Source: Candidatus Kuenenia stuttgartensis (GTDB lineage Bacteria; Planctomycetota; Brocadiia; Brocadiales; Brocadiaceae). Taken from it: DNA of 32,000 bases. Under the pieces are notes generated by a model. It did no database searches, was not told the DNA's origin, and saw nothing but the letters and a program-made list of their open reading frames with translations. The stretch's first letter is position 1; the number at the start of each line of letters is the position of its first letter. Both the position numbers and the translations under genes were made by a program. Below are positions 3,492-20,828 of this stretch, in pieces. The stretch is taken from positions 2,220,001-2,252,000 of the forward strand of contig NZ_LT934425.1 in assembly GCF_900232105.1 (NCBI RefSeq), written 5' to 3'.

Positions 3492-3585
3492 ATTTTTTGT
3501 GACTCGTCTTATTTCATCTTTATTAACAATGAGGTGTACCCCGTTGTCAAGATGGCTTCAAGTAAAACCTGACGGTGAAGAATTC

Positions 3586-4135: not shown

Positions 4136-4248
4136 CTCTGTTGGAAATATCTCATAGAAGGCAATTCAGATTATAAGCTCCCGCGAACTCAACTTGGAAA
4201 ATTGCAAATTCCTGGTAATTTCGGAAATACCTTACTTGATTCTACGAA

Positions 4249-4360: not shown

Positions 4361-4498
4361 GACCCTTTATGCAAATCTCATGTTCTCATCAGTATAACTG
4401 AAATTTAACAGCGAATTACTGTAAAGCCGTTAAGCGGAAGAAAAAGAGAAATAAGTATTGCACAATCATCCTTAATGTGGGATATTTGATGCGAATGT

Positions 4499-4858: not shown

Positions 4859-4859
4859 G

Positions 4860-5186
4860 ATGAAAGAAGATTATATCGTCGGTTCAGGAAACGTATTTAA
4901 TGATTTAGACTTTGAAAATCCGGAAGAAGAATTAGCTAAAGCAAGATTGGCTTCAATTATTAATGATATAATTGAGGAAAGAGGACTTTCCCAGGAGCAA
5001 GCCGGAAAAATTCTTGGAGTAAATCAACCGAAAATATCTGCTCTAAAAAATGGGAGATTAAAGGGTTTTTCTATGGAACGGTTATTTTCTTTTCTAGAAA
5101 AATTAGATCAACACATAGAAATAACCATTACCGATAAATCTAAAGTTAAAGCGAAGCGTAGTATTGAAGTCGCATATATACATTGA
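4860..5186 (+). CDS. XRE-family HTH antitoxin (HigA-like)
   Basis: 108 aa. GLSQEQAGKILGVNQPKISALKNGRLKGFSMERLFSFL is a classic HTH_37/XRE motif. The ATG lies 1 nt after the toxin stop. Confidence 0.8.
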   Translation: MKEDYIVGSGNVFNDLDFENPEEELAKARLASIINDIIEERGLSQEQAGKILGVNQPKISALKNGRLKGFSMERLFSFLEKLDQHIEITITDKSKVKAKRSIEVAYIH

Positions 5187-5278
5187 TCTTGTTCGTTTTA
5201 AAGGGTTACACATTCCTTTATCTTAAGTTTGATAGGGCAGGCAGTCACATCTGGGTCAGTCACACAATCAGATAATCA

Positions 5279-5332
5279 GGGGACACTTCCCATATTGCTT
5301 GCTTGATCTTGGGAAAATAAGGGAAGTGTCCC
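5279..5332. repeat. Hairpin repeat family B, copy 2
   Basis: ggggacacttcccatattgcttgcttgatcttgggaaaataagggaagtgtccc. It lies between convergent genes and could double as a bidirectional terminator. Confidence 0.8.
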
Positions 5333-5386
5333 TATATTTCCCTGAATAATAGTTGAATAATGAATGCCTGACCATCTGTCTCATGT

Positions 5387-5623
5387 TCACGACAAGACTA
5401 CTTCAGATTTTTCTCCGGTTGCTTCGTTAATTACGAAGAGCTTGCCGGCATCTTCCTTTTTCAACTGTTCGTTGGCGTTAAGTAATTCAATCCCATAAAT
5501 GGTACCGTCAGGAGCTATGTCTATGTTAATCTCTTCCCCTACCTTTATTGTCTCCACTCCTGTTGTTTTCTCATGCAACCTTATATAAGCTATGTTGTAT
5601 CTCGGATCATAGGTTAGTCTCAT
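5387..5623 (-). CDS. DUF2283 family protein (putative antitoxin partner of DUF4258)
   Basis: MRLTYDPRYNIAYIRL...IDIAPDGTIYGIELLNA matches the DUF2283 pattern (YD.e.D..YI ... D.dG...GIE.l.a). Confidence 0.7.
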   Translation of the reverse strand: MRLTYDPRYNIAYIRLHEKTTGVETIKVGEEINIDIAPDGTIYGIELLNANEQLKKEDAGKLFVINEATGEKSEVVLS

Positions 5624-5638
5624 TTTCTTCCCTCCTTC

Positions 5639-5887
5639 CTAAAAATATTTGGTTATTACTGTAACAACTATCCAGTCGTTATTTTCTTTTACGGCAATTG
5701 CTTCAATCTGTTTTGTTGCATACTGCATCTCACGCCAAATACCGTCAAAATGAAAGTTTCTTCTGAAACCTGTCCTGCCAAATTTTGCCAGAAAAGTTTC
5801 GCCTCTTTCAACAGTTGCGACAACCTCATCTTCTGTTGCTCCACGCGCAGTCATTCGCTCTCTTGCATGCGGATGAAGTTTTATCAC
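5639..5887 (-). CDS. DUF4258 family protein (putative toxin)
   Basis: MIKLHPHARERMTARGATEDEVVATVERGE...VVTVITKYF fits the DUF4258 pattern. It lies 15 nt upstream of its DUF2283 partner. Confidence 0.65.
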   Translation of the reverse strand: MIKLHPHARERMTARGATEDEVVATVERGETFLAKFGRTGFRRNFHFDGIWREMQYATKQIEAIAVKENNDWIVVTVITKYF

Positions 5888-5948: not shown

Positions 5949-6078
5949 GCGGGTTCAGGTTTGCAACTCAATGCTATTAAGTTAAGAATTATTTGGTTAA
6001 AACAACCCCCTAAATCCCCCTTTTCTAAGGGGGACTTGAGGAATTCCCCCTTAATAAATGGGGTTAGGGGGTTGTTTT
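5949..6078. repeat. Half copy of hairpin family D (gcgggttcaggtttgcaac) followed by G/C-run palindromic repeat family E, copy 1
   Basis: Outer inverted repeat aaaacaaccccctaa (5999-6013) / ttagggggttgtttt (6064-6078). Inner hairpin tccccctttt-c-taaggggga. Related copies at 14327-14389 and 19826-19888. Confidence 0.8.
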
Positions 6079-6383
6079 GCCAGCATTTATTGTGTATTCA
6101 AAAAGTCGTTGCCGAAGGCAGCCTGATTTAAATGTTTTTAAAGTACAACCTTGCCTTGATTCTTTCTAAAGAAATTGGTGGTTCAAAGATTTTTATGGGA
6201 TCAAAAGCTATGGCGAACCAGTTTGTATCTTTAGTTGCAGGGCATTGATAGGGTGGTTTTGAAAATTGCATTATGCCAAATACATTTTTGCCTGTAATTG
6301 AAATATGAAGGCCGGACCCTGAACTCTCTCTTGATCCACCCTACCGCAAAACCTGCTTAAATAAAATGAAAATTCCTATACTA

Positions 6384-7412
6384 TCAAGCTATAGCTTCGT
6401 CTATAGCGTCTTTTGCTTTGATAATTGCCTGCGCAAGCCGAGGAAGTGTTTTTTCTTTATCTGCATGTACAGAAGCCTTTGATGAAGCATTAATTTCACC
6501 AATTAACATATATGCTTTACTTATTTTTATGTCTTTATTGCTGATTACATACTTATATTGATTCCAAGAGGTGTCTGAAAGATAAATAAAATAATCATTC
6601 TCTAAATCTTTAGTTAATCTTGTTACTTTAATGTTTGGGGAATGCGCTGGATAAGCAGCTTCTATAAGCAAACGGTTAAGTCTTTTTATGAAATATTTCT
6701 CTAATTCGTTTAATTCGGCGGCTGATTTTTTTCTGTAGTCATTCGTATGGTTAACTAATCCTTCTGTTTCTTCTGAGAGCTTAAACGCAGGTATTCTTTT
6801 TTTAAAAATATCATCATAGAGCATAGGTTTACACAAAAGTTTGTTTAGCTCTTTATCAACTACTACTATCTCATCAATTCTATTTGCTTTTAAATCTTTA
6901 TTAATTTCTTTACAGAGATTTTCTAGACTTACGTTTTTAAATTCATCGTCGTTATGAAAGTCAAAATTGATAGCATTATCAATGCCTTTTTCTGATAAAT
7001 TTTTTGTTAGTTTTCGTAAATCGTTTTCTAATAATTCTTCAAAAATATTTTTATATTTTTCGGTTAAATAGTTTTTATTATTCTCTAATTCTTTTTTTAT
7101 CGTTTTTCTCCTTTTTCTATCAGTACGGAAGGACGTAAGCCAAGAACCAGCTAATGCGAGAATAGCTCCAACAAACATATTGATTAAAGAAAGTATAAAA
7201 TCAAACACCCTCTTCTTATTACGTTCGTAACAAAGTACTACTTTTTTTGCCTCTTTCCTGAAGATATTTTCGTTATTTTTATCTTTTTCGATAGAGACGT
7301 TATTGTTGCTTATTAAAGAGGTGGTACTTTCATGAGCGAATAAATTTAAAGCGATACTTATTAAGATGATGAATACTAATATGATATTTTTAGAAATGCC
7401 AAAGATTTTCAT
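6384..7412 (-). CDS. Hypothetical membrane protein with two predicted TM helices and a Lys/Glu-rich, probably coiled-coil, body
   Basis: 342 aa. Hydrophobic stretches IILVFIILISIALNLF and FDFILSLINMFVGAILALAGSWL. Very AT-rich like the neighbouring pAgo and SIR2 genes. No family recognised. Confidence 0.6.
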   Translation of the reverse strand: MKIFGISKNIILVFIILISIALNLFAHESTTSLISNNNVSIEKDKNNENIFRKEAKKVVLCYERNKKRVFDFILSLINMFVGAILALAGSWLTSFRTDRKRRKTIKKELENNKNYLTEKYKNIFEELLENDLRKLTKNLSEKGIDNAINFDFHNDDEFKNVSLENLCKEINKDLKANRIDEIVVVDKELNKLLCKPMLYDDIFKKRIPAFKLSEETEGLVNHTNDYRKKSAAELNELEKYFIKRLNRLLIEAAYPAHSPNIKVTRLTKDLENDYFIYLSDTSWNQYKYVISNKDIKISKAYMLIGEINASSKASVHADKEKTLPRLAQAIIKAKDAIDEAIA

Positions 7413-7595
7413 TTCGCTTACATGTCCTATTAAAAAAACCTTCCTTTACGCCTTGCAATAGGATACTTGTAACAAAAGTTGTAAAATTTGCAAGTTTTTT
7501 AAAGTTGTGGACAGAGGGTCGGAGGGTCAGTACTATTGTTCAGAATTTAAATATGAAGGAGACCCCATGCCTAAGCGCTGAGGCATCATAGTCAA

Positions 7596-7672
7596 GGGAT
7601 AATCAGGGGACACTTCCCATATTTCTTGCTCGATCTGGTGGAAAATATGGGAAGTGTCCCCTGATTATTCCC
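7596..7672. repeat. Hairpin repeat family B, copy 3 (extended stem gggataatcaggggacacttccca...tgggaagtgtcccctgattattccc)
   Basis: Longest and most symmetrical copy. It directly abuts repeat A3. Confidence 0.85.
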
Positions 7673-7674
7673 GG

Positions 7675-7793
7675 CTAAAATTAGGCATGATGTCGCTTGA
7701 ATTCAGGTCTGGCAATGATTTTTGTAAAAGAGTCGCAGACCATATTTATTCTAGACCAGCATTGTAAATGTCAATAGATAAGGTGACCCCATC
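7675..7793. repeat. Dispersed repeat family A, full-length copy
   Basis: Aligns end to end with 4249-4360. It contains both the gtaaat and gtcaatagataagg variants seen separately in copies A2 and A1. Confidence 0.85.
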
Positions 7794-7829
7794 AACTATC
7801 TCAAAGGTCCGACGCTGCTGGCTGCGTTA

Positions 7830-9092
7830 TCAGAACGGTTCTTCGTAATCTTTCATTTCTTTATCGTATTTATCAATGAAACTGAGCAACAACTCACCCT
7901 TATTAGAAAAATATTTCTCAATAAAGATAGAAGTTTCTAAGGGAACGAAGTCAATATTCTGAGCTGTAATGCCAGTATAATTATATTCTGGCAGTTCAGA
8001 AAAAAAGGAGTCCTTTTGGATATTTTTTATATATACCTCTAAATCCTTCGGATTTGTACCTTTAGGATATTTTATTTTGAAAAAATCGTTTTCATCAAAA
8101 TCAATTATTTCACTATTATAAATTCTTTTTGGACCAAACTTGGGATTAACGATGATAAGTCTGTTAAAACCTTTTGACGCGTAAAATAGCAGATTATTAA
8201 TATATGGATCAAAAAAACTATAACCTATAACAAATATATATTTTTTAATTCTTAGCAATTCATTAAATTTTTTCATAAGGCTAAAAAAAGGTTCAACCGA
8301 AATGGTTTTAGATCCTTGTCCAAAAATCACATATGGATTATGAAAGGGTTCAATATACTCTTTTTCTTCTTCAGGAAACTTTGATTCTTCATATATTTCA
8401 CCAGATTCAACTCTGGCCCAGTCAATAGAACCATGAAGTTTATATAAATTTATCCTTCCAAACTCGTCTAATTTATCTTCATCATCAATACCTATCCATT
8501 TACCGTTATAAAAACCCCTCCAGGGAATTTCATGATGAGCGCCAAAATACTTCTCAATTACTAAGTCATTATTTAAAGTACAAACGTCTAATCGGAAACT
8601 CTGCTCTGAATAGCCTTGAAAGAATGCCCGTATTGGGGCAAGGTAGCCGAATTTATCTTCATCAGATTCCAACCAATGATTTTTCAAAAGGGATTTCAAT
8701 TTCAATTCCAATTCTTCAAAAAGATTTTTTCTGTCCTGTTTTTTATAAGCAGTCTCCAGTTCCACCAATTTATCTGCCCAATTACCTGTAATCGGATAGG
8801 GCAAAAAAAGTTCTCTATTTTTAATCCTTCTAATGAGGAGAACCAATTCTTCAATATTTGGGTTAAATTCTATTTCTCCGCCAGTTTTTATTGATCGCCA
8901 CTCGGCATGGTATGCCATACAGGATATTAAAAACTGTAAGGCTTCTTTTTCGGTTGGAGTAAAACTATCATCATCCGAAAGAATCTTTTTCTTTAAATCG
9001 CTGAACATTTCACCTGATGTTAAACATCCTGTTCCAAAGGAGAAACCAGCTCCCAAAAAGAATAGCGTCTTTTTTATAAGTTCTACTTCCAT
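7830..9092 (-). CDS. SIR2-like (SIR2_2/ThsA-type) putative NADase effector
   Basis: 420 aa. FLGAGFSF (encoded about 9037-9060), a TLNNDLVIE TxNxD-like motif and LYKLHGS (8428-8448) are the three signature motifs of defence-type SIR2 domains. The start lies 1 nt after the pAgo stop. Confidence 0.8.
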   Translation of the reverse strand: MEVELIKKTLFFLGAGFSFGTGCLTSGEMFSDLKKKILSDDDSFTPTEKEALQFLISCMAYHAEWRSIKTGGEIEFNPNIEELVLLIRRIKNRELFLPYPITGNWADKLVELETAYKKQDRKNLFEELELKLKSLLKNHWLESDEDKFGYLAPIRAFFQGYSEQSFRLDVCTLNNDLVIEKYFGAHHEIPWRGFYNGKWIGIDDEDKLDEFGRINLYKLHGSIDWARVESGEIYEESKFPEEEKEYIEPFHNPYVIFGQGSKTISVEPFFSLMKKFNELLRIKKYIFVIGYSFFDPYINNLLFYASKGFNRLIIVNPKFGPKRIYNSEIIDFDENDFFKIKYPKGTNPKDLEVYIKNIQKDSFFSELPEYNYTGITAQNIDFVPLETSIFIEKYFSNKGELLLSFIDKYDKEMKDYEEPF

Positions 9093-9093
9093 A

Positions 9094-11112
9094 TTAAATA
9101 AACCAAGGAGTTTTTTGCGAAATCTTGTTTTCTGAGATTTCTCCGTTAAAATGCAAAGAAAAATCTGCTATCATTTTAGAATATTTGGTTGTTACAGGTT
9201 GACTTGTTTGCATCAGTCCCTTCCAATTTAATCGTGAAAATTCATATACCTGCGACAATATTTCTCGATGTGAAAAACCACCTACATCTGCATGGAATAT
9301 TTTCACTTTAATGGGCAACTCATCTTTTACTTTACGAACTGGCTCTTTTTCATATCTATTATTATTGAAAAGCAAATATTCGTCTTTACCAATTTTTACA
9401 TAAGTTCCACTTTCAGGCATCCCCATATCATATTCGGTATCAAAACATATATCTGACTTGCTTTTGGTATCATTGACTTCAGTAAGCGCAAAAGGTATAT
9501 CTAAATTTAATTTGTTGTAAATTACCTGCTCAAAATTTTTTATCTCATCTTTTCTTGGTGGTTTGTAATAATGAATAGTTAATCTGTCAGGACTACCAAT
9601 AGACTTTGAATAGTCATCTATTGCGATCTTCAAATGAGATATTAAATCTTCTCCTGCTCTCTCCTCTGAGAAACCGTATATCCTTCCCAAGCGCCCTTCA
9701 TTGTCGAAAAATACAGCGCTGCCTATCCATTTCTGGTCTTGTAATTTTTTGTAATTATATCCAATCACTAAATCATTATATTTTTTTGTGTTTAGTTTCC
9801 ATGGGATTCCGCCTAATTTTGCCAATATAGCAATTGCTATGTTGGGCAAGCAATAATTAAAATTTCCACTACGAACAGTTTTATTTGCAATAAACTGAGA
9901 GGTAATTCCTTTATCAAGTAAGAGCTTTTTAATTTCATAATAAGTTTTTTCCTCTTCTTCGTCACTTTCGTATTTGCTAAATGGCCCTATAATTACTGCC
10001 GCATAGTTATAATAGTCATTATCGGGAAATTGGGCGGCAAGAAATTCCTGTAACTTTGTGGATAATTCTCCAGTGCTTGAATAGTATAGGCTTTTTTCCT
10101 TGTCCAATACTACAGGAATACCAACATATGTTAGCAATCCTGGAAATTGTTTTAACCCGTTTCTTAAATACTGATATACTTTATTGGCATCATCCCTTTC
10201 ATTGTAAATAAAAAGGATTTTTATATCGTTAGCATTATCAATCTTTTTATACGGTCCATACTCCCGCATTCCAATTACTGCATTAACAGTTTTATTTTCA
10301 CCGCCAAAAACCATTAAATTATCTTTTAATATTATTCTTTGCCTGTCTTTATCTAAAACGGTTTTAAAACCAGTTTTATCAATATTAAAAAAAACAGATT
10401 CAAAATCCTTTAGTCCCGATTTAAGAAAATCAAGAATGTTTTTATACTCTGTTTTATAGCTGCAAGGAATGACTCTATTCGCTCCTTCTATTCCTGACCG
10501 CATTTGTTTATCAGCGATAACTTTAAATGAATCTCCTGATAGAATTTGTTCATATTTACAGATTAATTTATTCCCAATGTTAACTACTTTCCGAATACCA
10601 TCAATTTGAAAAATTTCTTTTCTACTTATTAATGTAAACTCACTTCCAACACTAATGGATAGCTCTTCATTAAAAGATTTATAAACTAAATCATACCTAA
10701 TATATATTTCCCAGTCTGTTTTAAAATCTTCTTTACGTTTATAAACGGAGAGGTCAAAAGCAGTAGGATTTAGATCAACATAAAAACCTTTATCTAAAAA
10801 GTAATTAGTTAACTCCTGTTTAATAATTAATCTCTTTAAAGATTTAATATCAAAATTATCAGATGAAATGAAATAAGAATTATTATCCCTATCCAGAGAA
10901 AATTCGATTTCAACTGGGTCTTCATCCTTAATATTGTTTTTTTTAAGCCACTCATTAAAATTATTTTTTGCTTCATCATTTTTGATTTTGTTTCTTAACC
11001 ATTGTGATTCTTTAGCAGTGATGACAAAACCTTCTTTATTTTTAATGTTTACAAACCATTGTTTGTCTAAATGGAACCGCAAATTTGTTCTATTTAACAA
11101 CAAAGTACTCAT
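9094..11112 (-). CDS. Prokaryotic Argonaute (MID-PIWI), catalytically inactive, with a roughly 290-aa N-terminal region and no obvious PAZ
   Basis: 672 aa. PIWI hallmark AILAKLGGIPWKL (about 9799-9823). MID 5'-end pocket pattern YYEIKK...GITSQFI..NK (Y-K-Q-K type). C-terminal ...PVTTKYSKMIADF...TPWFI. DEDX positions read GYNY (not GxDV) and IHYYK (not RDG). GAGGGAGG SD lies 6 nt upstream. Confidence 0.85.
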   Translation of the reverse strand: MSTLLLNRTNLRFHLDKQWFVNIKNKEGFVITAKESQWLRNKIKNDEAKNNFNEWLKKNNIKDEDPVEIEFSLDRDNNSYFISSDNFDIKSLKRLIIKQELTNYFLDKGFYVDLNPTAFDLSVYKRKEDFKTDWEIYIRYDLVYKSFNEELSISVGSEFTLISRKEIFQIDGIRKVVNIGNKLICKYEQILSGDSFKVIADKQMRSGIEGANRVIPCSYKTEYKNILDFLKSGLKDFESVFFNIDKTGFKTVLDKDRQRIILKDNLMVFGGENKTVNAVIGMREYGPYKKIDNANDIKILFIYNERDDANKVYQYLRNGLKQFPGLLTYVGIPVVLDKEKSLYYSSTGELSTKLQEFLAAQFPDNDYYNYAAVIIGPFSKYESDEEEEKTYYEIKKLLLDKGITSQFIANKTVRSGNFNYCLPNIAIAILAKLGGIPWKLNTKKYNDLVIGYNYKKLQDQKWIGSAVFFDNEGRLGRIYGFSEERAGEDLISHLKIAIDDYSKSIGSPDRLTIHYYKPPRKDEIKNFEQVIYNKLNLDIPFALTEVNDTKSKSDICFDTEYDMGMPESGTYVKIGKDEYLLFNNNRYEKEPVRKVKDELPIKVKIFHADVGGFSHREILSQVYEFSRLNWKGLMQTSQPVTTKYSKMIADFSLHFNGEISENKISQKTPWFI

Positions 11113-14100
11113 TTATTTACCTCCCTCAATTATTGTAATTTCTACCCCGGTCAAACCGTAGAGTTTATAAACAAGCTGGTCAATCTGCCTTTCCAGCGGT
11201 GACGTGTCGGCATTAGGGTCTTTTTGCTTTTCGGTGAGGATTTGGTCAACAAGAGAATCTAATTGTTTCTTATCTGTATTTTTAAGGATTGGTATGGGAA
11301 TTTGTTCGAAATATTGAGGCTTGACTTCGATGAATCCACCGCTTCTTACAACACATATCGTTTTCAAAAAATACCAAACAACTTTTGAGTTAAGAATCCC
11401 TAATAGCCATTTCGCATCGGTTGGCAAGAAAACTGCCGGCGCATTAAGGTATGTACCGCTAATATCATAGGCAAATTTGTTGGAGTTTTGAAGGTTGGGG
11501 AATATTATTTTTGGTTTTGCAAACAGGTCATAATAAGCACAGTTTCTAAGTTCCCACCAGAACTCCCCCTTGTCATATCGCTTTCTTGCTGCCTCAGCAA
11601 AGGGCTTAAGATGGTTCATGATTGATGGAAAAGCAGCCCTCATTGCTTCAAATGCCTTTGCTTCGTCCTGTCCGTTAAAATACGTACGTGTTGACTTGTT
11701 TTCGAAGACGATCATCTTTTTATCAATCGCTGGGGTCTGCCATTTCTTGATATCTTTGCCCTCGAAAACAGGTTTGAGGTGCTTGCTGTTTCCCAAGTCT
11801 TTTTCTGTTATAAATGCCTCATTTAATGCTGTTTTAATACCATAATAGCACTTTCCAAATACGTCTTTCAACTTCTTATGAATGGATATTTTCTCTGATA
11901 ACTCCACTTGTCCCTGATGATCAAAACTCCAGGAAAACTGCTTCAGTGCTGAACTTGGTAGAAGCGTATAAGAAATGGCTCTACCCGAATTAAAATTGCC
12001 AAATAGATCTTCGGTTACTTTGAGATATGCAAATGCTTCCTGATGCTTTGATTTTATCGCAAGAAGGATTATTGGGTAGGTTGTGGTACCCTCAAAAACA
12101 CCAACAGATTTAAAGTCAACATACTTGTTTAATGAAAAATTATCCGAGACATATTTACGTAGAGTTTTTCCGGCAGTTGTTTTATCAAACGCATTATTGA
12201 TAAAACAAAAAACTCCCTGATTTGTCAGAATATTAAAAGACCTCTCATAGAAATAATAAAAAATATCTCCGCTTGGGGCAAATACGGTGTAGGTAGCCTT
12301 AAGATAAGTTTTCAAATCTCCCAAATCTTCAGCCCGAATATACGGCGGATTCCCAATCACCACATCAAACCCCTCCTTAATCCCAAACATCCACTCTGTG
12401 TCAAAGAAAGTAGCCGAGTTGTTCTGGTCGTAAGGATCCCAGGCGGCTATTTTTTTGGCAGTGGCAGGTTGGAAGTCATGGTTTTCTATTAGCAATTCAG
12501 CCAGTTCGTCACGCAATTGTTTGTCTTTTATACGGCAGGTTTCCTTACGCCTGGGCGTCCGGGCTTCAAAGTAATCGTGCCGCACCTTTTTCAGTTCGGC
12601 CTTTTTCTTTTCTATATCAGGGTTGGTAAACAAATGCGCCTTTTCTTTTTCCAGCCCTATCAATGTATTGGCAGCCACAAATTTCGTTTCCAGGTTTGGC
12701 AGGGGACGTACGCCTAAGTTGTCTCTCCTGTGATTTACCTTTTGATCAACAATCAGGGAAATAAAGAACCGCAGCTTGGCTATCTGTACGGCGATGGACT
12801 GTATATCTATACCATAAATGCAGTTCTCTATGAGGTAGAGCTTGCGTCCATAGTCAAATTCGTTGTTATCAAAGGCTTCTTCAATATCTCTGCGCGTGTT
12901 GTGCAGGTCTTCAATTACTTTTTCCCTGACACGGGTGTCTGAAATGCCTTCGGCATCTTCAATCAGTTTATCTACCTTATCTAACTGCCGTTGTTTCCAT
13001 CGGGCGTTGTTGGGATCGAGTTTATGCAGTATATGAACCATCCTGTGCAGTATGCCCATTGGGAAAGCCCCGGAGCCGCAGGCAGGGTCTAAAATCTTAC
13101 AGGTATCAATCGCCTTAACAAGAACCCCGGCTTCCTCAGTATTGAAGGGATTGGGGTTTTCAGAATAACTGAGCAGGTCGCGTAATCTTTCTTCGTTTTT
13201 GTCGGTGTTGTTAGATTCTTCGCTCCGCTCAGAATGACAAAAGGGGACAGAATGACCGGCTGAGACGGAACTACGGGATGGGACATCATGACAAGATGAG
13301 AGAGATTGCTTGAGGTAGGCCAGCAATGATTCGTCCACCATGTAGTTTACAATCTCGCGCGGAGTGTAAAACGAACCGGTCTGTTTGCGGGCAGTGGTTT
13401 GGGTTTCGGGATTGTAGTTGGCTAAAAGGTTTTCAAATACCTTACCAAGCAATTCGGGGTCGAGGGCTATTTCTTCTTCTATGGGTGTATTTTCGGCAAC
13501 AGTAAATTTATAGCTGTTCAGAATGTCAATGATCCCGTAAACCTTTTCTTTATTTTTTTTGGATGAACTGTAGATCCTGCTTAAATCGACGTCCACACCT
13601 TTTTCGTTAAAAAACAGCTCGTCCGGCACTTCCAGCACATTATCTTCCCGGTCGCTGAAGCTGTCAATACGGATGCGCTTTCGTTTGCCGTCATCGTCCA
13701 GTTCCTTATCCAGGCATTCAAACAAACCGCCGTTGAGAAAAGGGATCGGAGAAAAGTATTGCTCCAGTGTTTCTTTTGGTTTTACAAATTCATTCTCGTA
13801 ACGGAATACGTTGTGGATGAAATAATGTCCATCGCGTCCGCTGTCATTTTTAGTCCTGAACCCGCGCTTGCCCATTTCGGTGTTTAGGGTAGCAAAGAAC
13901 AGGTTTTGCAGGATGGCTTTATAGTAAGCGCTTTTCTTATTGTCAGTATATTTGAGCAGTTTCTTCAACTGCTTCTCATCAAATAATGCATCCGGAACCA
14001 GTCCTTTTTCTTTCAGGAACCAAACAAACATCAAACGGGTGATGAGACGGATAACACTGGTTGCATTGCGTACATCTTTGTCCTTTCCTGCATCATCAGG

Positions 14101-14925
14101 AAACACCACTTTTTGTGTGGCCCAAAAATACCAGTTGGCAAGTTCCCTGAAGAAACGTTTGTTGAGTTCGGAGGTGTCTAATGCCTTTTGCCAGGCATTA
14201 TGCAGTTCCACAAAATTGGTAAAGCCGTGTTTGTTTTTTAGTTCATTGAATGAGAGGTCGAAGAGGATTTCTATGTGGGCGCGGTGGGTGACTGCGCCAT
14301 CGCCGCCGGAAACAATTTCCTTGCCCAAAACAACCCCCTTACCCCCTTTTTTAAGGGGGATTTCTACATCACCCCCGCCAGCGGGGGATATGCGGATGTT
14401 TTTGATGAGGGTTACTTTCTGAAGTACATCCTTGCTTTCGTCCCGTTTGTGCAGCCTGCGGTTGATGACAGAAAGTGTGAGCGAAAAACCGTGTTTGAAC
14501 AAAATCATAACTGGCATGGGAAACAGGCGATTGACTTCACGGGTGATGTGTGAAAGTTCGGTTCTGCTGTAGTGTTCTTTCGCCAGTTCTATGGCAAAGA
14601 ACAAATACGTTTCAATGACAGTGCGGTCAACCTGTTTGGTATCGAACAGTGACAATTGCCTTGTTACCTCTTCCTTAGAAAGCTGGAAGAGCAGGTCAAC
14701 ATATTTCCAGTCTTTTACCAATGCCTTGTCTTCATTAAACATGGATTGACTATCTATGAAGGAATCTCTGAATGCAATATAGGCAGGCTTTTCCAAAGGC
14801 GCCCGGCGTTCGGTAATATAGCCAAGGGTTTGAAAGAGGTTTAATGCATTTTCGGAAAGGTTGCCAGCGCCAAATTGCTGGATGGCTTCCTTTATTTTTT
14901 GCCTGAGGTCTTTCGCCATAATCAT
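11113..14925 (-). CDS. Large Eco57I-family gamma-class N6-adenine DNA methyltransferase with TaqI-like C-terminal target-recognition domain (PglX / DrmMI / type IIG-like)
   Basis: 1270 aa. Motif I ILDPACGSGAFP. Motif IV VVIGNPPYI (12337-12360). C-terminal GEFWWELRNCAYY...GGFIEVKPQYFEQIPIP is typical of TaqI_C specificity domains. The first codons overlap a REP copy, so the start could be the ATG at 14919 (MAKDL...). Confidence 0.85.
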   Translation of the reverse strand: MIMAKDLRQKIKEAIQQFGAGNLSENALNLFQTLGYITERRAPLEKPAYIAFRDSFIDSQSMFNEDKALVKDWKYVDLLFQLSKEEVTRQLSLFDTKQVDRTVIETYLFFAIELAKEHYSRTELSHITREVNRLFPMPVMILFKHGFSLTLSVINRRLHKRDESKDVLQKVTLIKNIRISPAGGGDVEIPLKKGGKGVVLGKEIVSGGDGAVTHRAHIEILFDLSFNELKNKHGFTNFVELHNAWQKALDTSELNKRFFRELANWYFWATQKVVFPDDAGKDKDVRNATSVIRLITRLMFVWFLKEKGLVPDALFDEKQLKKLLKYTDNKKSAYYKAILQNLFFATLNTEMGKRGFRTKNDSGRDGHYFIHNVFRYENEFVKPKETLEQYFSPIPFLNGGLFECLDKELDDDGKRKRIRIDSFSDREDNVLEVPDELFFNEKGVDVDLSRIYSSSKKNKEKVYGIIDILNSYKFTVAENTPIEEEIALDPELLGKVFENLLANYNPETQTTARKQTGSFYTPREIVNYMVDESLLAYLKQSLSSCHDVPSRSSVSAGHSVPFCHSERSEESNNTDKNEERLRDLLSYSENPNPFNTEEAGVLVKAIDTCKILDPACGSGAFPMGILHRMVHILHKLDPNNARWKQRQLDKVDKLIEDAEGISDTRVREKVIEDLHNTRRDIEEAFDNNEFDYGRKLYLIENCIYGIDIQSIAVQIAKLRFFISLIVDQKVNHRRDNLGVRPLPNLETKFVAANTLIGLEKEKAHLFTNPDIEKKKAELKKVRHDYFEARTPRRKETCRIKDKQLRDELAELLIENHDFQPATAKKIAAWDPYDQNNSATFFDTEWMFGIKEGFDVVIGNPPYIRAEDLGDLKTYLKATYTVFAPSGDIFYYFYERSFNILTNQGVFCFINNAFDKTTAGKTLRKYVSDNFSLNKYVDFKSVGVFEGTTTYPIILLAIKSKHQEAFAYLKVTEDLFGNFNSGRAISYTLLPSSALKQFSWSFDHQGQVELSEKISIHKKLKDVFGKCYYGIKTALNEAFITEKDLGNSKHLKPVFEGKDIKKWQTPAIDKKMIVFENKSTRTYFNGQDEAKAFEAMRAAFPSIMNHLKPFAEAARKRYDKGEFWWELRNCAYYDLFAKPKIIFPNLQNSNKFAYDISGTYLNAPAVFLPTDAKWLLGILNSKVVWYFLKTICVVRSGGFIEVKPQYFEQIPIPILKNTDKKQLDSLVDQILTEKQKDPNADTSPLERQIDQLVYKLYGLTGVEITIIEGGK
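13195..13300. repeat. Probable repeat-derived in-frame insertion inside the MTase gene (peptide SCHDVPSRSSVSAGHSVPFCHSERSEES)
   Basis: Low-complexity segment with a cagaatgac direct duplication. Another frame of the same strand reads ...VILSPFVILSGAKNL... (track ORF 13089-13289). I recognise these peptide signatures as typical of a widespread short repeat. Boundaries are approximate. Confidence 0.5.
14290..14395. repeat. Family E repeat inserted in frame inside the MTase gene (peptide SPAGGGDVEIPLKKGGKGVVLGKEIVSGGDGAV)
   Basis: aaaacaacccccttaccccctttttaagggggatttc (from 14327) aligns with intergenic copy E1 aaaacaaccccctaaatcccccttttctaagggggacttg (from 5999). It is followed by the hairpin acccccgccagcggggga. 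Outer boundaries are approximate. Confidence 0.7.
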
Positions 14926-15829
14926 GCCACCCCTTCGGGCTTTCGTTTATTATAATATTTTAGTTTTTTGAAAAATTCCACAAATGAGATGATTACCTTT
15001 CCCTGTAGTGGCAATGCGTTTCACATGCGCTTCGCTTTCTCTTCGAGTTATGAATTGCCGCTATATATATTGATACAAAGGTATTTTGCAGTTTTGACGT
15101 TTTCACAAAACTAGCATGTTACCGTTTTTTTTGATTCAGTTTACAATCTTTACAATCCCGAAGGGATGTAATTATTATAGATTTAATGAAAGAAAACCAC
15201 CAAACCCCGAAGGGGTGTAATTATTATAGCAATTATTTATTTTATTATTCCAACCAATCAAACAAATATTTTTCATGGAATTCCACATTGAATCTTTTCA
15301 AAAAATCCGAATATTCTTCCTTAAATGTCTTCCGCTTATGATGTTCTTCCTGGTTCAAAATATAGTTGTAAACTGTTTCGATCTGCTATGTGCATAGGAG
15401 AAGGCTCCGTATCCTTCTGCCATGAAATTTACTTCTAATCATTACCGATCCATATTAATGAAATTCGTCGTATTGTTTTTCACATCCCTGACCAAATCAG
15501 AAATAGCCATGGACGGTTGTAACCCTATAAATATATGCACATGGTTGGCAACGCCGTTAACGATTATAGACTTTTGTCCCTTATTTTTGATGATACCAGC
15601 CATATATTTGAACACCTCATCTCTCCAGGGTTTTTGCAGCAGATTCGACCTGCCGTTTACGGCAAAGATTGCCTGTATGTATATTTGTGTGAATGTTCCA
15701 GACATGATTTTTTATTCTATAATCATTTCACCCCTTTGGGGTTGTTGTTTGTGGTTATTCTTTGGCTATAATCATACCAGCCCTTCGGGCTTTTTGTCAT
15801 ATTGTACCAGTTTAGTTTTTTGAAAAACA
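14917..15829. mobile_element. REP/RayT cluster: decayed Y1 transposase gene bracketed by inverted REPs (family G) and inverted family C repeats
   Basis: REP G copies: cataatcatgccaccccttcgggc (14917-14940, rc), cccgaagggatgtaattattatag (15157-15180), cccgaaggggtgtaattattatag (15206-15229), ctataatcataccagcccttcgggc (15771-15795, rc). C5 (15100-15124, forward) and C6 (15805-15828, rc) lie outside them. Confidence 0.75.
15245..15705 (-). pseudogene. IS200-like / REP-associated tyrosine transposase (RayT, Y1_Tnp) pseudogene
   Basis: Frame 1 gives MSGTFTQIYIQAIFAVNGR...VANHVHIFIGLQPSMAISDLVRDVKNNTTNFI (HxH motif), then a stop at 15442. The rest is readable only after frame shifts: ...AEGYGAFSYAHS then QIETVYNYILNQEEHHKRKTFKEEYSDFLKRFNVEFHEKYLFDWLE* ending at 15245. 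There are at least two frame disruptions. Confidence 0.8.
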
Positions 15830-16054
15830 TGATTTTTTCAGCTATTCCGCAGCCCTGACAGGGTTTCAAAACTCTGTCAGGGTTAAATCAGCGAGTAGGA
15901 CGCACCCTGCGATGTTACAATTTTTGTAACATTTTAAGTAAAGAATCCACCAGCGAAACAGATAGCTTTGGGTTTATCCCTATAAGGGGATGAGTTTATC
16001 CGGTGGGACTTGCATATCGATACTATGCAATTGGTCAGTCACTGGCTGACGATT

Positions 16055-16354
16055 TTACGGTAGCATCAATTGGGCAGTCAGTGACCGCCTGATTTGCGGA
16101 TAGGTTTGGTAAAACTGCCTGAATAGCTTTAAGTTACGGCAAGATAATCCTTTATTATCAAAACGTTCCGAAAGATTTTGCAATAGGTTTTCGCCATAGG
16201 TAGCCCGGTCTTCCCCTTTTTGCTCATACTCAACAATGTAAAAACCAATTAGCCAGTTACGGATTGTAATATGGCGGTTAATTGCCGTTACAGCCGATTG
16301 TTGCAAGGCAGTATGGGTCTGCTGTATGGTATTAACTAAGAATTCAAATTTCAT
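16055..16354 (-). pseudogene. N-terminal fragment of a DUF1016/YhcG-type (PD-(D/E)XK nuclease family) protein
   Basis: 99 aa. IRNWLIGFYIVEYEQKGEDRATYGENLLQNLSERF...CRNLKLFRQFYQTYPQI matches the YhcG N-terminal domain. Full-length members are about 3.5x longer as I recall, and the nuclease core is absent. The start lies 1 nt after the helicase stop. Confidence 0.65.
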
Positions 16355-16355
16355 A

Positions 16356-19300
16356 TTACTTTATGACTAACCACGTTACTAACTCAAAATTATCCAAATC
16401 ATGCACCTGTTTCGACTGTGGTATCAATAATGCACCACGGTCAGTGGTGAGTTTTTGATTGCTGCGTTTTCTGAATACATGACTTATTTCATATACGGCT
16501 TTTTTTAGCAATTCAGTATACTTACCCATCTCCTCGCCATTCCTGGTTTCTGTATTGAATAATTCACAAAGCTTCTCATAAGGCGCTTTGCGCCCCTGAC
16601 ACATCAGGCGGTAGATTTCCAGTATCTGTTTGGCGTTGGTGTAATTGAAACGAACCGTTCCGTCTTCGCGAATGTATGCCAGAAAGTAAGGTTGCAATGG
16701 GTTTACTTCTTCGTTGCCGCCGGTGTCGCCTTTTTGCTTCAGGCAATATACCACACCCGGTTTGATAATATTCTTTTCGGCTGGAGTAAAGCGGCTTGCA
16801 TCTGTATTTTGCGCATGAATGCCAGATGGTGAAGGCACGACGGCATATAAACCAAAGGGCGCATCTTCCAGCTTCTTACTATTATTTTCCAAAAATGTGT
16901 GCAATTCGATGCGGAAATCATCCAGGGTAAAATCGGTTAACGAAATGCTTTCGCTCATTTCTTCGAGGTCGAGCACTTCTTTTTGCAGTTTTTTCAGTTG
17001 CCGGTTACGGTACTTCAAATCATCTGTGATAAGCTCTTCTATTTGTTCGGTATTCAGTATGTTGTCTTCGCCGGTGGCGGTAACGTCAACCAATGCCATC
17101 CGGGACTCCACGCGTTCTTTCAGGTTGATGTAATTATCAAGGTCTTTGGTAGGCCAGAAGTTTATCAGTTGGATTTTCTTATTCCTGCTTCCCAGCCGGT
17201 CAATACGGCCAAAACGCTGAATGATGCGAACGGGATTCCAGTGAATATCGTAGTTAACCAAAAAATCACAATCCTGTAGGTTCTGCCCTTCGCTGATGCA
17301 GTCAGTGGCGATCAGTATATCTATCTCCACTTCCTGCGGCATGGATTTCATTAATTCCCTGTTTTTAGAAACGGGTGAGAAGTTGGCGAGGATGTTTGAA
17401 AAATCATTTTTGCCGAATGTGGTTTGGTTGGTATTCCCCGCTACCAATGCAATGTTCAATTTCAAATCTTTTTTCACCCATTCTTTCAGACAATTATATA
17501 GGTATTGAGCGGTATCGGCAAAGGCGGTAAAAACGATTACCTTCCTGTTGTTGCTGTTCAGTGGTTGATTAATTTTTTGTTCGATTAGTTTTTGAAGGTC
17601 TTTCAGTTTTGCGTCACGTTCCGGGGTCACCGCAACTGCCGTATTATACAACTCATTGAGGGCTTCTTTGTCTTTTGTTAAATCGTTCAACCAATCTTCC
17701 AGACGTAAATCAGCTAAATCAAATTTCAATTTTTTCCCTACCTGCCATTGTTCAAGGTCGTCGGTATTTTCTTCTAATTCGTCTTCATCCGGTTCCAATG
17801 TTTCCAAAACCTCTTCCTGCGATTTAGCGTTTGATTTAAGGAATTCATTGATTCTGCTTTCAAGTTTTTCGATTTTCTGAATTGTTCTGTCCATTGAAAT
17901 CTCAAATGATTCAATACAGCTTTCCAGGCGTTTCAGGAAGTTTACCTTCATCATTCCGATAAGGAAGTGCTCACGGTCGCTTTGTTTGAAGGCAAGGATT
18001 TCCGTTCCGGCTAACGCTTCATATTTCTGCTTCTTTTCATCCTTCACATAGGCAGAAGGATTAAATACCGAAAGCTTGTATTGCAGGATTTTTTTGTTCA
18101 GCGCATCGTAGGTAAAAAAGCGGTCTTTTATATCAATATTCGGGTAGAGGGAATGAGGCTTTAACCGTTCTGGGAATTGCCCTATGGCGTCAATATTGTA
18201 AAAACCCTTTATGTGCTTTCTGCTCCGGGCAATAGTGAGTTCGTCCAGCAATTTGAAGAAGGATGAATCAAGGCGTTCCATTAATTGCTTAACTGTTCTG
18301 TCGGGATTCTTTTTATGGTCAGCCCAAAATGTAAACTGTGTCTGGGCATTCCTGAGTGTAAGGGCAATATCCTTGATTTGTGTACTCTCAAAGAGGGCAT
18401 CATTTTCGCCTTCCGTAATGAGTGAGATTTGATTTCTTAAATCGCGAAGGTTATTGTTGACCGGCGTAGCAGAAAGCATGAGTACCTTTGTTTTCAATCC
18501 CGACTTGATGATTTTTTCCATCAGCCATTTGGCACGGTTCATTTTGATGGCGCCGTCATCTTTGGCCTTTTCCATCGGATTGCCCCGAAAATTATGTGAC
18601 TCATCGATAACTACAAGGTCATAGGCGCCCCAATTGAAGTTTTCAAGGTCTATGCCGTTTGCATCGGATTTACCGGTTATTCTGCCGAGGTCGGTATGGT
18701 ACAGAATGGTATAGTTAAACCGGTCTTTGGTAAACGGATTAAGTGCGTTGTTTTGGCTCGCCTGGTAAATCGTCCAGTTAGCCGAGAGTTTTTTTGGGCA
18801 GAGCACAAGAACGCGGTAATTCAATAATTCGAAATAACGGATTACCGCCAACGCCTCAAAAGTCTTGCCCAAACCGACGCTATCCGCGATGATGCAGCCG
18901 TTGTGTTTCAGGATTTTATTGATGGCCCCTTTTACGCCGTCTTTCTGAAAGTCGTACAGCTTATGCCATATTTCGCTTTCAAAAAATCCGGTGCGTTCAT
19001 TCAGCAAACCGCCGCGTTTTTGTTCGTCAATATAGTTCCCAAAGAGGTGGAACAGGGTTTTGAAGTAAATAAACTCCGGTTCATTTTCAATATAAAATTG
19101 TTCAAGGTCTTTAAGCACTTCGGCTTTAACATCTTCGACGAGTCCTGTTGTGTCGTTCCACAACTCATTAAACCAGTTTGTCAGGTCATCCAAATCCCTT
19201 CTGTCCTGGATAACCATATTCAATTCGATGTTCGGGCTTCCGCCCATTCCGAGTCCATGAACAGTGAAATTGGAACTCCCCATGACCGCTTCTTTAACCC

Positions 19301-19694
19301 CGTTTGGATTTTCCATCAAATAAAGCTTGCCGTGCAGGAAGTTTGGTTTCACCATGGATTTGACGTGAACCTTTTCTTTAATCCAATCCGAGCATTCTTT
19401 GGAAAGGGATTTTTGTTTTAAGAGGCTTTCAATTGGGATTACCAGTGAATCGTCCTCGATTTTGAAGTCGCGCCTGTTGGTTTTTGCCGGGTCCAGTGAT
19501 TTGATAAAGGATGGCTCACCAAAGAGGAACCTTAGGTGATCTGTTCGGTCGAGTTGGTTTTTTAATTGTTTGTATGCGTAAATGGTGAAGTATGCCGAGA
19601 CTATTGATAAACCGGCGCCTTGCTTTACATTATCAATAAGGAATTGGCCGACTGTTCCATTTTTATGATTGTCACGGATTGAAGTATTGTTCAT
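16356..19694 (-). CDS. PLD-nuclease-domain / SNF2-family helicase fusion protein
   Basis: N-terminus: FLHGKLYLM (19314-19340) plus GSSNFT form an HxK PLD motif. Middle: DSVGLGKT (Walker A), VVIDESHNFRG (DExH). C-terminus: QRFGRIDRLG (helicase motif VI). The track ORF starts at a TTG (19733), so the ATG at 19694 (MNNTSIRD...) is preferred. Confidence 0.85.
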   Translation of the reverse strand: MNNTSIRDNHKNGTVGQFLIDNVKQGAGLSIVSAYFTIYAYKQLKNQLDRTDHLRFLFGEPSFIKSLDPAKTNRRDFKIEDDSLVIPIESLLKQKSLSKECSDWIKEKVHVKSMVKPNFLHGKLYLMENPNGVKEAVMGSSNFTVHGLGMGGSPNIELNMVIQDRRDLDDLTNWFNELWNDTTGLVEDVKAEVLKDLEQFYIENEPEFIYFKTLFHLFGNYIDEQKRGGLLNERTGFFESEIWHKLYDFQKDGVKGAINKILKHNGCIIADSVGLGKTFEALAVIRYFELLNYRVLVLCPKKLSANWTIYQASQNNALNPFTKDRFNYTILYHTDLGRITGKSDANGIDLENFNWGAYDLVVIDESHNFRGNPMEKAKDDGAIKMNRAKWLMEKIIKSGLKTKVLMLSATPVNNNLRDLRNQISLITEGENDALFESTQIKDIALTLRNAQTQFTFWADHKKNPDRTVKQLMERLDSSFFKLLDELTIARSRKHIKGFYNIDAIGQFPERLKPHSLYPNIDIKDRFFTYDALNKKILQYKLSVFNPSAYVKDEKKQKYEALAGTEILAFKQSDREHFLIGMMKVNFLKRLESCIESFEISMDRTIQKIEKLESRINEFLKSNAKSQEEVLETLEPDEDELEENTDDLEQWQVGKKLKFDLADLRLEDWLNDLTKDKEALNELYNTAVAVTPERDAKLKDLQKLIEQKINQPLNSNNRKVIVFTAFADTAQYLYNCLKEWVKKDLKLNIALVAGNTNQTTFGKNDFSNILANFSPVSKNRELMKSMPQEVEIDILIATDCISEGQNLQDCDFLVNYDIHWNPVRIIQRFGRIDRLGSRNKKIQLINFWPTKDLDNYINLKERVESRMALVDVTATGEDNILNTEQIEELITDDLKYRNRQLKKLQKEVLDLEEMSESISLTDFTLDDFRIELHTFLENNSKKLEDAPFGLYAVVPSPSGIHAQNTDASRFTPAEKNIIKPGVVYCLKQKGDTGGNEEVNPLQPYFLAYIREDGTVRFNYTNAKQILEIYRLMCQGRKAPYEKLCELFNTETRNGEEMGKYTELLKKAVYEISHVFRKRSNQKLTTDRGALLIPQSKQVHDLDNFELVTWLVIK

Positions 19695-19728
19695 AGGTTC
19701 ATGTATTATCTTCTTTCCTGGAAAAATG

Positions 19729-19810
19729 TTCAATATTCAATTCTCAATATTCAATTCTCAAATTGTTGCTCATTTGCCTCTATTCTTTTACATTGAATAT
19801 TGAATATTAA
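19729..19810. repeat. Low-complexity tandem/inverted repeat (tcaatattcaattc x2 ... attgaatattgaatatt) over the 5' end of the helicase gene
   Basis: ttcaatattcaattctcaatattcaattctcaaattg (19729-19765) and cattgaatattgaatattaa (19791-19810) are mutually inverted. Confidence 0.8.
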
Positions 19811-19825
19811 TTTTCAGTAACAGTT

Positions 19826-19888
19826 CACCCACCCCTTAATCCCCTCCCAAGAGGGGACTTCTTGTATTCCCCTCTTGAGAGGGGTGTG
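19826..19888. repeat. G/C-run palindromic repeat family E, copy 2
   Basis: cacccaccccttaatcccctcccaagaggggacttcttgtattcccctcttgagaggggtgtg has two tandem hairpins of the cccctc..gagggg type. Confidence 0.75.
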
Positions 19889-19982
19889 CACTTTTCAAAT
19901 ACTGGGACAATCCATAAGGGGAGCATTCCCGATTTTTTGTAAGTTTTCGTAACTATTCAGCGCAAGCATCACACGATTCCAG

Positions 19983-20154
19983 GCGGGTTCAGGTTTGCAA
20001 CCTGAACCTATGAGTTTATGCGTATAATGGGGTCATGTACTTACTGCGGTAAAAACCCTGTTTGGCATATGGGATTTATTTGTCATTTTTCTGCTAATAG
20101 AAGGCAGGATTGGAAGCATAAAACGTTTGGTTCAGGTTACAAACCTGAACCCGC
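19983..20154. repeat. Hairpin family D pair in inverted orientation bracketing about 120 bp
   Basis: gcgggttcaggtttgcaacctgaacc (19983-20008) and ggttcaggttacaaacctgaacccgc (20129-20154). A half copy lies at 5949-5967. Confidence 0.8.
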
Positions 20155-20161
20155 ACAGGTG

Positions 20162-20190
20162 TTTTTTCAAAAATCTAAAGTGTTACGAAA
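20162..20190 (+). repeat. Dispersed repeat family C, copy 7
   Basis: tttttcaaaaatctaaagtgttacgaaa differs at 1 of 28 positions from copy C1 (3358-3385), in the same orientation. Confidence 0.85.
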
Positions 20191-20828
20191 ATTTCAACCC
20201 TGACGTTGCTGTCAGGTGGAAACTCCTGGCAGCACGAGAAAAATATTGGTTCATACCACACTTTTGGCTCAAATCCTTTATCGTTTAATATCACCGCAGC
20301 CTCTCCGCTTTCACCGATAACGAACAATCCGTTTCTGTATGCATATTTATCAGAATCCTCCTCCATTACTATCCCGCCTACTGCGCCAACTACCTTCCTT
20401 CCGATATATTCCGGGAAAAAGGTCTTGAATTTCCCGAGTCTCTCTATATGTTCTTTTACATCCTCTATCTTTAACGTGCTTTTCGCCTCTATCAACACGG
20501 CATATTCACCATTTATCGCAAGGATATCCACTTCCATTTCGTCACCATTTCTGTGTGTCTTTACCCTCTGGAATACCTTGTCTACTTCTATTCCCCGTTC
20601 TTTAAACAGCCTTTCGGTTGCAGGCGCTATGAGTCCCTCTACAAACCTGCTCCATTTTCCAGTGAGTGCATACACTGCCTTGTTGGTATTTTCTGATGTT
20701 TTGCGGGTTTCTTCAACCGACTTGCTCAATTTGTCAATTTCCTTGTCTGTATCCTTAAACCGCCCATCAGTCTCTTTAAACAACTTCCATATTTCCTGAA
20801 TACTTTTTTCCATTTCCTGAGTAGTCAT
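20175..20828 (-). CDS. DUF3782-like protein with a PD-(D/E)XK-type core (coiled-coil N-terminus)
   Basis: MTTQEMEKSIQEIWKLFKETD...; EVDILAINGEYAVLIEAKSTL gives a D...E.K nuclease-like motif. ATG at 20828 follows GGAG. The last ~15 codons run into repeat C7 and the adjacent hairpin. Confidence 0.55.
   Translation of the reverse strand: MTTQEMEKSIQEIWKLFKETDGRFKDTDKEIDKLSKSVEETRKTSENTNKAVYALTGKWSRFVEGLIAPATERLFKERGIEVDKVFQRVKTHRNGDEMEVDILAINGEYAVLIEAKSTLKIEDVKEHIERLGKFKTFFPEYIGRKVVGAVGGIVMEEDSDKYAYRNGLFVIGESGEAAVILNDKGFEPKVWYEPIFFSCCQEFPPDSNVRVEIFVTL

Follow-up and report, generated by a model that had tools for sequence, protein, structure and literature searches.

Long-B prokaryotic Argonautes (pAgos) of the BPAS type are described as simple operons of two or three genes, in which the pAgo is encoded together with the SIR2 protein bAgaS (Song et al. 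2023, PMC10620215). In this work we analyse a pAgo-SIR2 pair encoded on a 32,000-nt stretch of DNA from Candidatus Kuenenia stuttgartensis (NZ_LT934425.1, positions 2,220,001 to 2,252,000; hereafter the window), where it belongs to a string of genes that also contains a PLD-nuclease/SNF2 helicase, a DUF1016 fragment and a large N6-adenine methyltransferase (methylase). The initial annotation of this DNA regarded the five genes as one block and as a candidate composite defence operon. The comparative analysis presented here favours another interpretation, namely that the string is likely to hold two separable defence systems: a mobile BPAS-type cassette that habitually rides in restriction operons, and a stand-alone helicase-methylase pair whose cargo slot the cassette occupies in this genome.

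Several described systems resemble this arrangement in part. Restriction loci carry variable co-expressed genes (PMC3632139), and the anticodon nuclease PrrC of the type Ic EcoprrI locus is silenced by the linked type I enzyme (PMC2610378, PMC3632139). The likeness to the window lies in the placement of an abortive-infection effector inside a restriction operon and in the layering of immunity and suicide. PrrC is, however, physically silenced by the restriction enzyme and triggered by an anti-restriction peptide, whereas the promiscuity of the pAgo-SIR2 cassette with respect to host type argues against a specific contact. TgvAB, an experimentally verified defence system embedded in a type I locus (PMC12409362), is likewise a self-contained defence system within a restriction gene cluster, but its cargo is a type IV restriction system rather than an Argonaute with an NADase, and its known host is type I only. 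DdmDE (PMC12409362) shares with the window an inactive Argonaute encoded near a helicase-nuclease. In contrast to the window, DdmD is an SF2/PD-(D/E)xK protein dedicated to DdmE, whereas our helicase-nuclease is part of a methylase-linked pair that nearly always occurs without an Argonaute, and our pAgo has a SIR2 effector of its own. Orthogroups of HsdS, type III endonuclease, SAM-methyltransferase and Schlafen have been reported in pAgo operons, where they were read as nuclease, helicase or DNA-binding partners only (Ryazansky et al. 2018, PMC6299218). The literature searched contained no explicit account of pAgos lying within restriction operons, which is not proof of absence.

The pair of the window matches the described BPAS type in gene order, models and motifs. 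The gene of an inactive long pAgo is followed immediately by that of a SIR2_2-domain protein, which agrees with the published order, and both proteins are recovered by the corresponding PADLOC models (Table 1), the pAgo model aligning with residues 25-672, i.e. over the full length. In the alignment of the pAgo family (~120 members), N453 and the residues IHYY at 513-516 stand, by motif reading against canonical Argonautes, in place of the first catalytic Asp and the Asp of the RDG motif. The closest solved structures are AfPiwi, RsAgo and EcAgo, all of which are inactive Argonautes. On this motif reading the pAgo is a catalytically inactive long Argonaute, in agreement with its earlier description as DEDX-less. 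The residues Y391, K395, Q406 and K432 of the MID domain, which holds the 5'-end pocket, are invariant in the same alignment, and the SIR2 catalytic motifs (GAG at 14-16, N174/D176 and H220) are kept in at least 95% of 28 homologues. The ratio of nonsynonymous to synonymous substitution rates (dN/dS) is 0.14-0.18 for the pAgo and 0.16 for SIR2, and overall 0.09-0.18 for both genes, which points to purifying selection. Judged by these ratios and by the conserved SIR2 and MID motifs, the cassette looks to be under selection and is predicted to be active. Its departure from the described type concerns the setting: instead of forming a stand-alone operon, the pair comes directly after the methylase stop codon, and, like about three quarters of its relatives, it is a passenger in a restriction operon and lacks an evident promoter.

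Direct reading of the sequence confirmed the three tight junctions noted previously. The methylase stop codon TAA (11115-11113) abuts the pAgo ATG (11112-11110) with a zero-nt gap, and GAGGGAGG lies ahead of the pAgo start at 11127-11120, within the 3' end of the methylase gene; the pAgo-SIR2 and helicase-DUF1016 junctions are both TAA-T-ATG. Near the methylase-pAgo junction the G+C content shifts from 0.41-0.45 in the helicase and methylase genes to ~0.30 in the pAgo and SIR2 genes.

The scale of the association with restriction genes was assessed from the neighbourhoods of pAgo relatives. A scan of a genome collection with the pAgo alignment gave 80 loci (L001-L080), of which L001-L034, with the window, form the SIR2-linked set; neighbours were read from maps of open reading frames (ORFs) and Pfam scans, and 33 loci were informative. 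The pAgo-SIR2 pair is kept in 33 of the 34 loci, the contig of L032 ending inside the pAgo gene. In 24 of the 33 informative loci the pair lies on the same strand in a restriction operon of one of four architectures (Table 1), and in 21 of these it is separated from the restriction gene by no more than 41 nt or overlaps it. The 21 loci with such same-strand gaps are independent and represent at least five bacterial phyla as well as archaea. The restriction gene is usually found just upstream of the pAgo, and the cassette nearly always comes right after a methylase or a specificity gene. Eight of the 33 loci have no same-strand restriction genes, and in L004 the type III genes are on the opposite strand. 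With its common strand, variable occupancy and four host architectures, the cassette falls into the class of restriction-embedded accessory defence genes to which PrrC and TgvAB belong.

Comparison of related copies demonstrates that the pAgo-SIR2 pair is a discrete mobile cassette of 3.3-3.45 kb. Between the window and another Brocadiaceae locus (L002), the cassette block (3461 aligned nt) is 93.0% identical, whereas the flanking methylase and helicase genes align only in pieces, mostly at 65-72%; at the protein level the pAgos are 91% and the SIR2 proteins 94% identical, as against 59% (methylase) and 58% (helicase). The type III operon of a Chitinophaga (L009) and the type I operon of a member of the Cyclobacteriaceae (L010) have only a block of 3282 nt in common that can be aligned (92.4%); it begins with the ATG of the pAgo and stops close to where SIR2 ends. 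The occurrence of one cassette with unrelated host proteins in these two loci argues against specific contacts. Host operon types are interleaved in the neighbour-joining tree of the pAgos, which does not track host type. A tblastn search with the pAgo against 72,556 plasmids gave no match and hence no sign of travel on known plasmids.

The helicase and the methylase, in turn, are a widespread autonomous two-gene restriction-like pair. The methylase family has at least 8000 matches at E below 1e-30, and 65 of the 80 metagenomic methylase loci that we mapped contain a PLD-SNF2 homologue, mostly directly upstream and mostly within 30 nt. Neither pAgo nor SIR2 occurs in any of these 80 loci, 37 of which extend at least 3 kb downstream of the methylase, and the third gene beside the pair, where present, is variable. 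The methylase consists of a conserved N-terminal region of ~780 aa, a catalytic core with the motif NPPY at residues 859-862 (N/P/P invariant in the family alignment) and a TaqI_C-type target-recognition domain. Its best PADLOC match is the type IIG REase_MTase (1e-89), and its profile matches in PDB, CamA and M.BseCI, cover the C-terminal half only, residues 1-780 being without a solved homologue. The domain scan detected no MmeI_N or other nuclease domain in residues 1-480, and the sole evident nuclease of the pair is the PLD domain on the separate helicase. The literature on DUF4391 or on the combination of PLD, SNF2 and Eco57I offered nothing useful on this pair.

The combination of a SNF2 helicase with a PLD domain and a large adenine methylase of the Eco57I type is also reminiscent of class 1 DISARM and of BREX, and the initial annotation had labelled the methylase PglX/DrmMI-like and considered a DISARM-like locus with a displaced core. 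The scores, however, are far below the NCBIfam cut-offs: the helicase reaches 160 bits with the DrmD model (cut-off 610), and the methylase 73 and 72 bits with two PglX models (cut-offs 500 and 400, respectively). In PADLOC the helicase matches 'HKD+Snf2' at 2e-133 versus 1e-42 for DrmD. When the ORFs of the window with 80 aa or more were scanned for BREX and DISARM components, no DrmA, DrmB (DUF1998), DrmC, PglZ, BrxC or BrxL was found, and the pair recurs as a two-gene unit. Both the label and the displaced-core reading were therefore dropped. The same annotation had expected independent systems to appear as a methylase-helicase pair that is widespread on its own, as is indeed observed, and as pAgo-SIR2 pairs that are essentially never next to such genes, an expectation contradicted by the 24 restriction-linked loci.

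The place that follows the methylase serves as a general slot for cargo. The slot often holds a tightly coupled, variable gene, which is a weakly mad3-like SMC ATPase in 16 of 39 cases; its other occupants are AriA/Old/GajA-like and HEC-01A/AbiL-like ATPases, GmrSD, Schlafen-AlbA_2 and full-length DUF1016 proteins. In a Brocadiaceae metagenome-assembled genome (MAG; L165) it contains an Avs4 STAND NTPase (11932-17082, PADLOC 2.5e-191), 62 nt past the stop codon of a methylase that is 53% identical to that of the window.

Exchange of cargo can be followed among the closest relatives. Over 16.4 kb the window matches a MAG contig of Candidatus Kuenenia stuttgartiensis at 98.3% identity. Three sibling loci (L162-L164) keep the helicase, the DUF1016 fragment, the Y1_Tnp transposase gene and the methylase core, L162 being 96.5% identical to the window at 12341-19704, as well as the downstream HTH_37/Gp49 pair (97%). 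The window segment 5343-12340, with the recognition domain, pAgo, SIR2 and three small genes, corresponds to positions 7335-13662 of L162, which encode another recognition domain and unrelated cargo. The sibling methylases are mosaic: the core is 96.5% identical up to NPPY, beyond which a single exchanged segment comprises the recognition domain together with all of the cargo behind it, so that restriction specificity and passenger genes change together. Presence of the cassette is polymorphic, the window and L161 having it and L162-L164 lacking it, and the latter are the closest thing to a natural knock-out of the cassette.

These observations can be combined into the following scheme. By analogy with GbBPAS (PMC10620215), the inactive long Argonaute would sense invader nucleic acid via small guides and then switch on its SIR2 partner, whose motifs are intact, leading to destruction of NAD+ and abortion of the infection. 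As their domains suggest, the methylase with its own target-recognition domain would mark self DNA, and the PLD-nuclease/SNF2 translocase would presumably attack unmarked DNA. The cassette, which fills the variable cargo slot right behind the methylase stop codon, would have arrived by recombination, probably anchored in the conserved C-terminal tail of the methylase. It appears to bring its own ribosome-binding site, which is part of the 140 nt at the methylase 3' end that travel with it, and, to judge from the spacing, its transcription most likely relies on read-through from the restriction genes. The result would be a layered defence, restriction first and suicide second, in which the cassette would gain expression and stable maintenance and would need no specific protein contact with the methylase or the helicase. 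Viewed from the cassette the link to restriction is strong, oriented and operonic, and viewed from the restriction side it is rare, an asymmetry predicted by a relation of passenger and vehicle.

Some points weigh against this scheme. Restriction operons are very strongly preferred, and in a strongly oriented manner (24 of 33 loci), which a passive passenger does not obviously predict, and some generic functional cross-talk with restriction is possible. Co-transcription is argued from gaps of 0-41 nt and from the lack of a predicted terminator, and the promoter and terminator scan of 7000-20500 gave counts equal to those in shuffled sequence, so that it is uninformative on transcription units. 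A recombination site, att-like pair or flanking repeat that would explain the mobility of the cassette was not detected, the matches being short ones at chance level and the dispersed repeats on the 3' side. The roles of the methylase and the helicase are those suggested by domains for this family. The oriented preference would be accounted for by a generic functional coupling, in which any restriction type could serve and placement in the same operon would be selected for function. The restriction complex might restrain pAgo-SIR2 until a phage anti-restriction factor disables the complex, following the logic of PrrC and its linked type I enzyme in EcoprrI (PMC2610378, PMC3632139), or products of restriction or translocation of invader DNA might feed or license pAgo targeting. 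The four restriction architectures, the 21 tight gaps and the position after methylase or specificity genes all agree with such coupling, and a sister pAgo clade that lacks SIR2 is placed likewise (31 of 39 informative loci). We nevertheless consider it unlikely, since the same cassette occurs with unrelated host proteins, eight loci have no nearby restriction genes, BPAS are described as simple two- or three-gene operons (PMC10620215), and the self-contained Avs4 and GmrSD found in the same slot imply that occupancy alone does not mean coupling.

A dedicated composite system, in which the Argonaute response is gated or carried out directly by the methylase or by the PLD-SNF2 helicase, e.g. 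with the pAgo recruiting the helicase-nuclease as DdmE recruits DdmD, appears very unlikely. The TAA|ATG junction, whose conservation had been proposed as a check of such a system, is indeed common to the window, L161, L001 and L002, the four copies from Brocadiaceae, but this is because one block including the methylase 3' end was inherited, and not because coupling was maintained independently. The order PLD-SNF2, methylase, pAgo, SIR2 also recurs at a helicase and methylase identity of only 24-28% in L017 and L019 (Bacteroidota) and in L026 (Nitrospiraceae). However, these distant cases fall into at least three pAgo clades, where they are interleaved with type I and type III hosts, and in the Nitrospiraceae MAG the helicase homologue (3147-5483) is detectable by tblastn but broken into small ORFs beside intact pAgo and SIR2 genes, which indicates that the cassette outlives its host helicase. 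Given also the transfer of the cassette between operon types in L009 and L010, the pAgo tree that does not follow the host, the sibling strain with other cargo in place of the cassette and the lack of pAgo in the 80 methylase-centred loci, the specific hard-wiring suggested in the initial annotation is not upheld. At the other extreme, the genes might be chance neighbours in a defence island with no shared transcription. The 3-20 kb part of the window is an island with toxin-antitoxin-like pairs and dispersed repeats, and consensus scans cannot prove an operon, but the zero-nt gap, the ribosome-binding site inside the upstream gene and the recurrence of same-strand gaps of at most 41 nt across phyla make this explanation extremely improbable. 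The plain adjacency considered earlier falls short of the observations, given the prevalence of same-strand, mostly closely spaced pairs in restriction operons.

On the reading of a mobile cassette carried by restriction operons, both halves of the string are of known kinds, and no new mechanism is revealed by the window. What is new is that the relatives of this BPAS-type Argonaute are mostly (~3/4) passengers of restriction operons and are exchanged as a precise cassette, whereas the literature searched treats BPAS as stand-alone. With one cassette found in different hosts, and one host found both with it and without it, a natural experiment is available that can separate mere co-expression of innate restriction and guided abortive infection from communication between them. 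The locus is also a warning for annotation, as tight junctions alone are insufficient to call new composite systems.

The sister clade mentioned above (L035-L080) comprises pAgos of ~690 aa, mostly from Chitinophagaceae, which have no SIR2 partner and are 31-36% identical over the C-terminal two thirds. In the 31 loci the sister pAgo is the last gene of a type I, type III or IIG-like restriction operon, and it is followed by housekeeping or unrelated genes, e.g. AraC regulators, an antiporter or a sigma-54 activator, with no dedicated effector among them. That the inactive long Argonaute lineage as a whole, with its SIR2-linked and SIR2-less clades, is functionally tied to restriction-modification enzymes seems to us distinctly doubtful. 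Two forms of such a tie are conceivable. By analogy with DdmE and DdmD, the Argonaute might direct HsdR, Res or PLD-SNF2 to guide-matched invader DNA that is without recognition sites or is methylated; or the restriction complex might license Argonaute activation. The sister clade is the best material for the idea of a restriction motor-nuclease as an Argonaute effector. It also shows recurrent small upstream ORFs (~110 and ~362 aa), which are unannotated.

Table 1. Features of the window around the pAgo-SIR2 cassette, and restriction operons hosting pAgo-SIR2 pairs
Feature	Coordinates in the window, or loci	Strand	Evidence or remarks
PLD(HKD)-nuclease/SNF2 helicase, 1125 aa	16356-19733	minus	PLDc_2, SNF2-rel_dom and Helicase_C; PADLOC C3a139 'HKD+Snf2' 2e-133
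DUF1016/YhcG N-terminal fragment, 99 aa	16055-16354	minus	DUF1016_N 2e-16
Insertion debris with frameshifted IS200/RAYT-like Y1_Tnp gene (15442-15705)	14926-16054	minus	Y1_Tnp 3e-14; REP-like hairpin repeats on flanks
Gamma-class N6-adenine methyltransferase, 1270 aa	11113-14925	minus	Eco57I 1e-33, N6_Mtase, TaqI_C 1e-13
Variable target-recognition part of methylase	11113-12340	minus	Homology to L162 stops at 12341, right past NPPY
Exchanged cassette block: methylase 3' end (140 nt, with the GGAGG), pAgo, SIR2, 28 nt of 3' flank	7802-11253	minus	93.0% identity to L002
Long pAgo, 672 aa	9094-11112	minus	Piwi 3e-12; PADLOC pAgo 6e-112
SIR2_2-domain protein, 420 aa, predicted NADase	7830-9092	minus	SIR2_2 5e-07; PADLOC Aga_SIR2 5e-87
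Two dispersed intergenic repeat elements	7596-7793	not assigned	Just past the 3' boundary of the cassette
Host: large Eco57I-type methylase, with or without PLD-SNF2	window, L001, L002, L017, L018, L019, L025, L026		
Host: MmeI-like single-chain type IIG	L005, L023		
Host: type I	L010, L014, L021, L022, L028, L029, L031, L034		hsdM-hsdS-[pAgo-SIR2]-...-hsdR and variants
Host: type III	L009, L011, L012, L013, L016, L027		HTH-res-mod-[pAgo-SIR2], or cassette 5' of mod-res

The five minus-strand genes of the initial annotation are recovered at their coordinates by both the ORF list and the domain scans (Table 1). Their number, strand and order stand, but the string is not continuous, being interrupted between the DUF1016 fragment and the methylase by 1.13 kb of transposase debris. 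L002 and L165 have full-length DUF1016 relatives (341 and 364 aa, respectively) in the corresponding position, and the window copy is truncated because of this IS200/Y1_Tnp insertion. The Y1_Tnp gene is frameshifted in the window, encodes 119 aa in L161 and has its intact length of 153 aa in L162; on either side of it lie repeat families with GC hairpins (67-69 nt), at 14909-14975 and 15759-15827. The possibility that the Y1_Tnp fragment is a lost N-terminal domain of the methylase was rejected, since most homologues, including a 98% match, have 1200-1290 aa and their alignments begin at residue 1. A fused PF01797 domain is present in five of the listed methylase homologues (P0142, P0148, P0152, P0172 and P0190), and this transposase family recurs at this position. 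A 51-nt palindromic element with G/C runs has copies at 6029-6079 (intergenic) and at 14326-14376, in frame within the methylase gene. The in-frame copy adds ~31-38 residues (SPAGGGDVEIPLKKGGKGVV...), which are absent from most methylase homologues and common to the Brocadiaceae copies, and looks like a tolerated insertion of a small repeat element.

Two families of dispersed intergenic repeats (up to 95 nt, 80-96% identical) are found between the gene modules of the island. Besides the copies at 7596-7793, which include a 29-nt inverted repeat at 7596-7671, they occur at 5271-5320, 4249-4351, 3059-3103 and 1720-1762, and also in L001, L002, L161 and L162; such repeats may serve as recombination substrates. 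Upstream of the intact helicase of L002, a remnant at 428-845 matches the helicase N-terminus (window 19311-19554, 83%) and the DUF1016 end (15992-16169, 85%), as if a second operon copy of the window type had been deleted there.

Other genes next to pAgo-SIR2 pairs include that of a 1997-aa DEAD/Helicase_C protein with an MrfA Zn-binding (DUF1998-type) domain in L033 (1016-7009), which ends 15 nt before the pair; it is a non-restriction host gene related to the helicase class of DISARM and Druantia. In L032 a gene for nicotinamide phosphoribosyltransferase (NAMPT; 6195-7604) lies 42 nt upstream of the pAgo. The window itself has nadB (24247-25854) 4.5 kb from the helicase and, at 1955-2982, a phosphoribosyltransferase plus an MJ1316 cyclic-RNA-end domain gene. 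The vicinity of NAD-related genes to an NAD-depleting system may be a coincidence, or NAD-salvage genes may accompany it. Beyond ~20.9 kb the window contains housekeeping genes. The island also contains a 342-aa ORF (6384-7412) whose N-terminus is hydrophobic and which matches no family, and the toxin-antitoxin-like pairs HTH_37 with Gp49 (HigBA-like) and DUF4258 with DUF2283 are encoded at 4860-5887.

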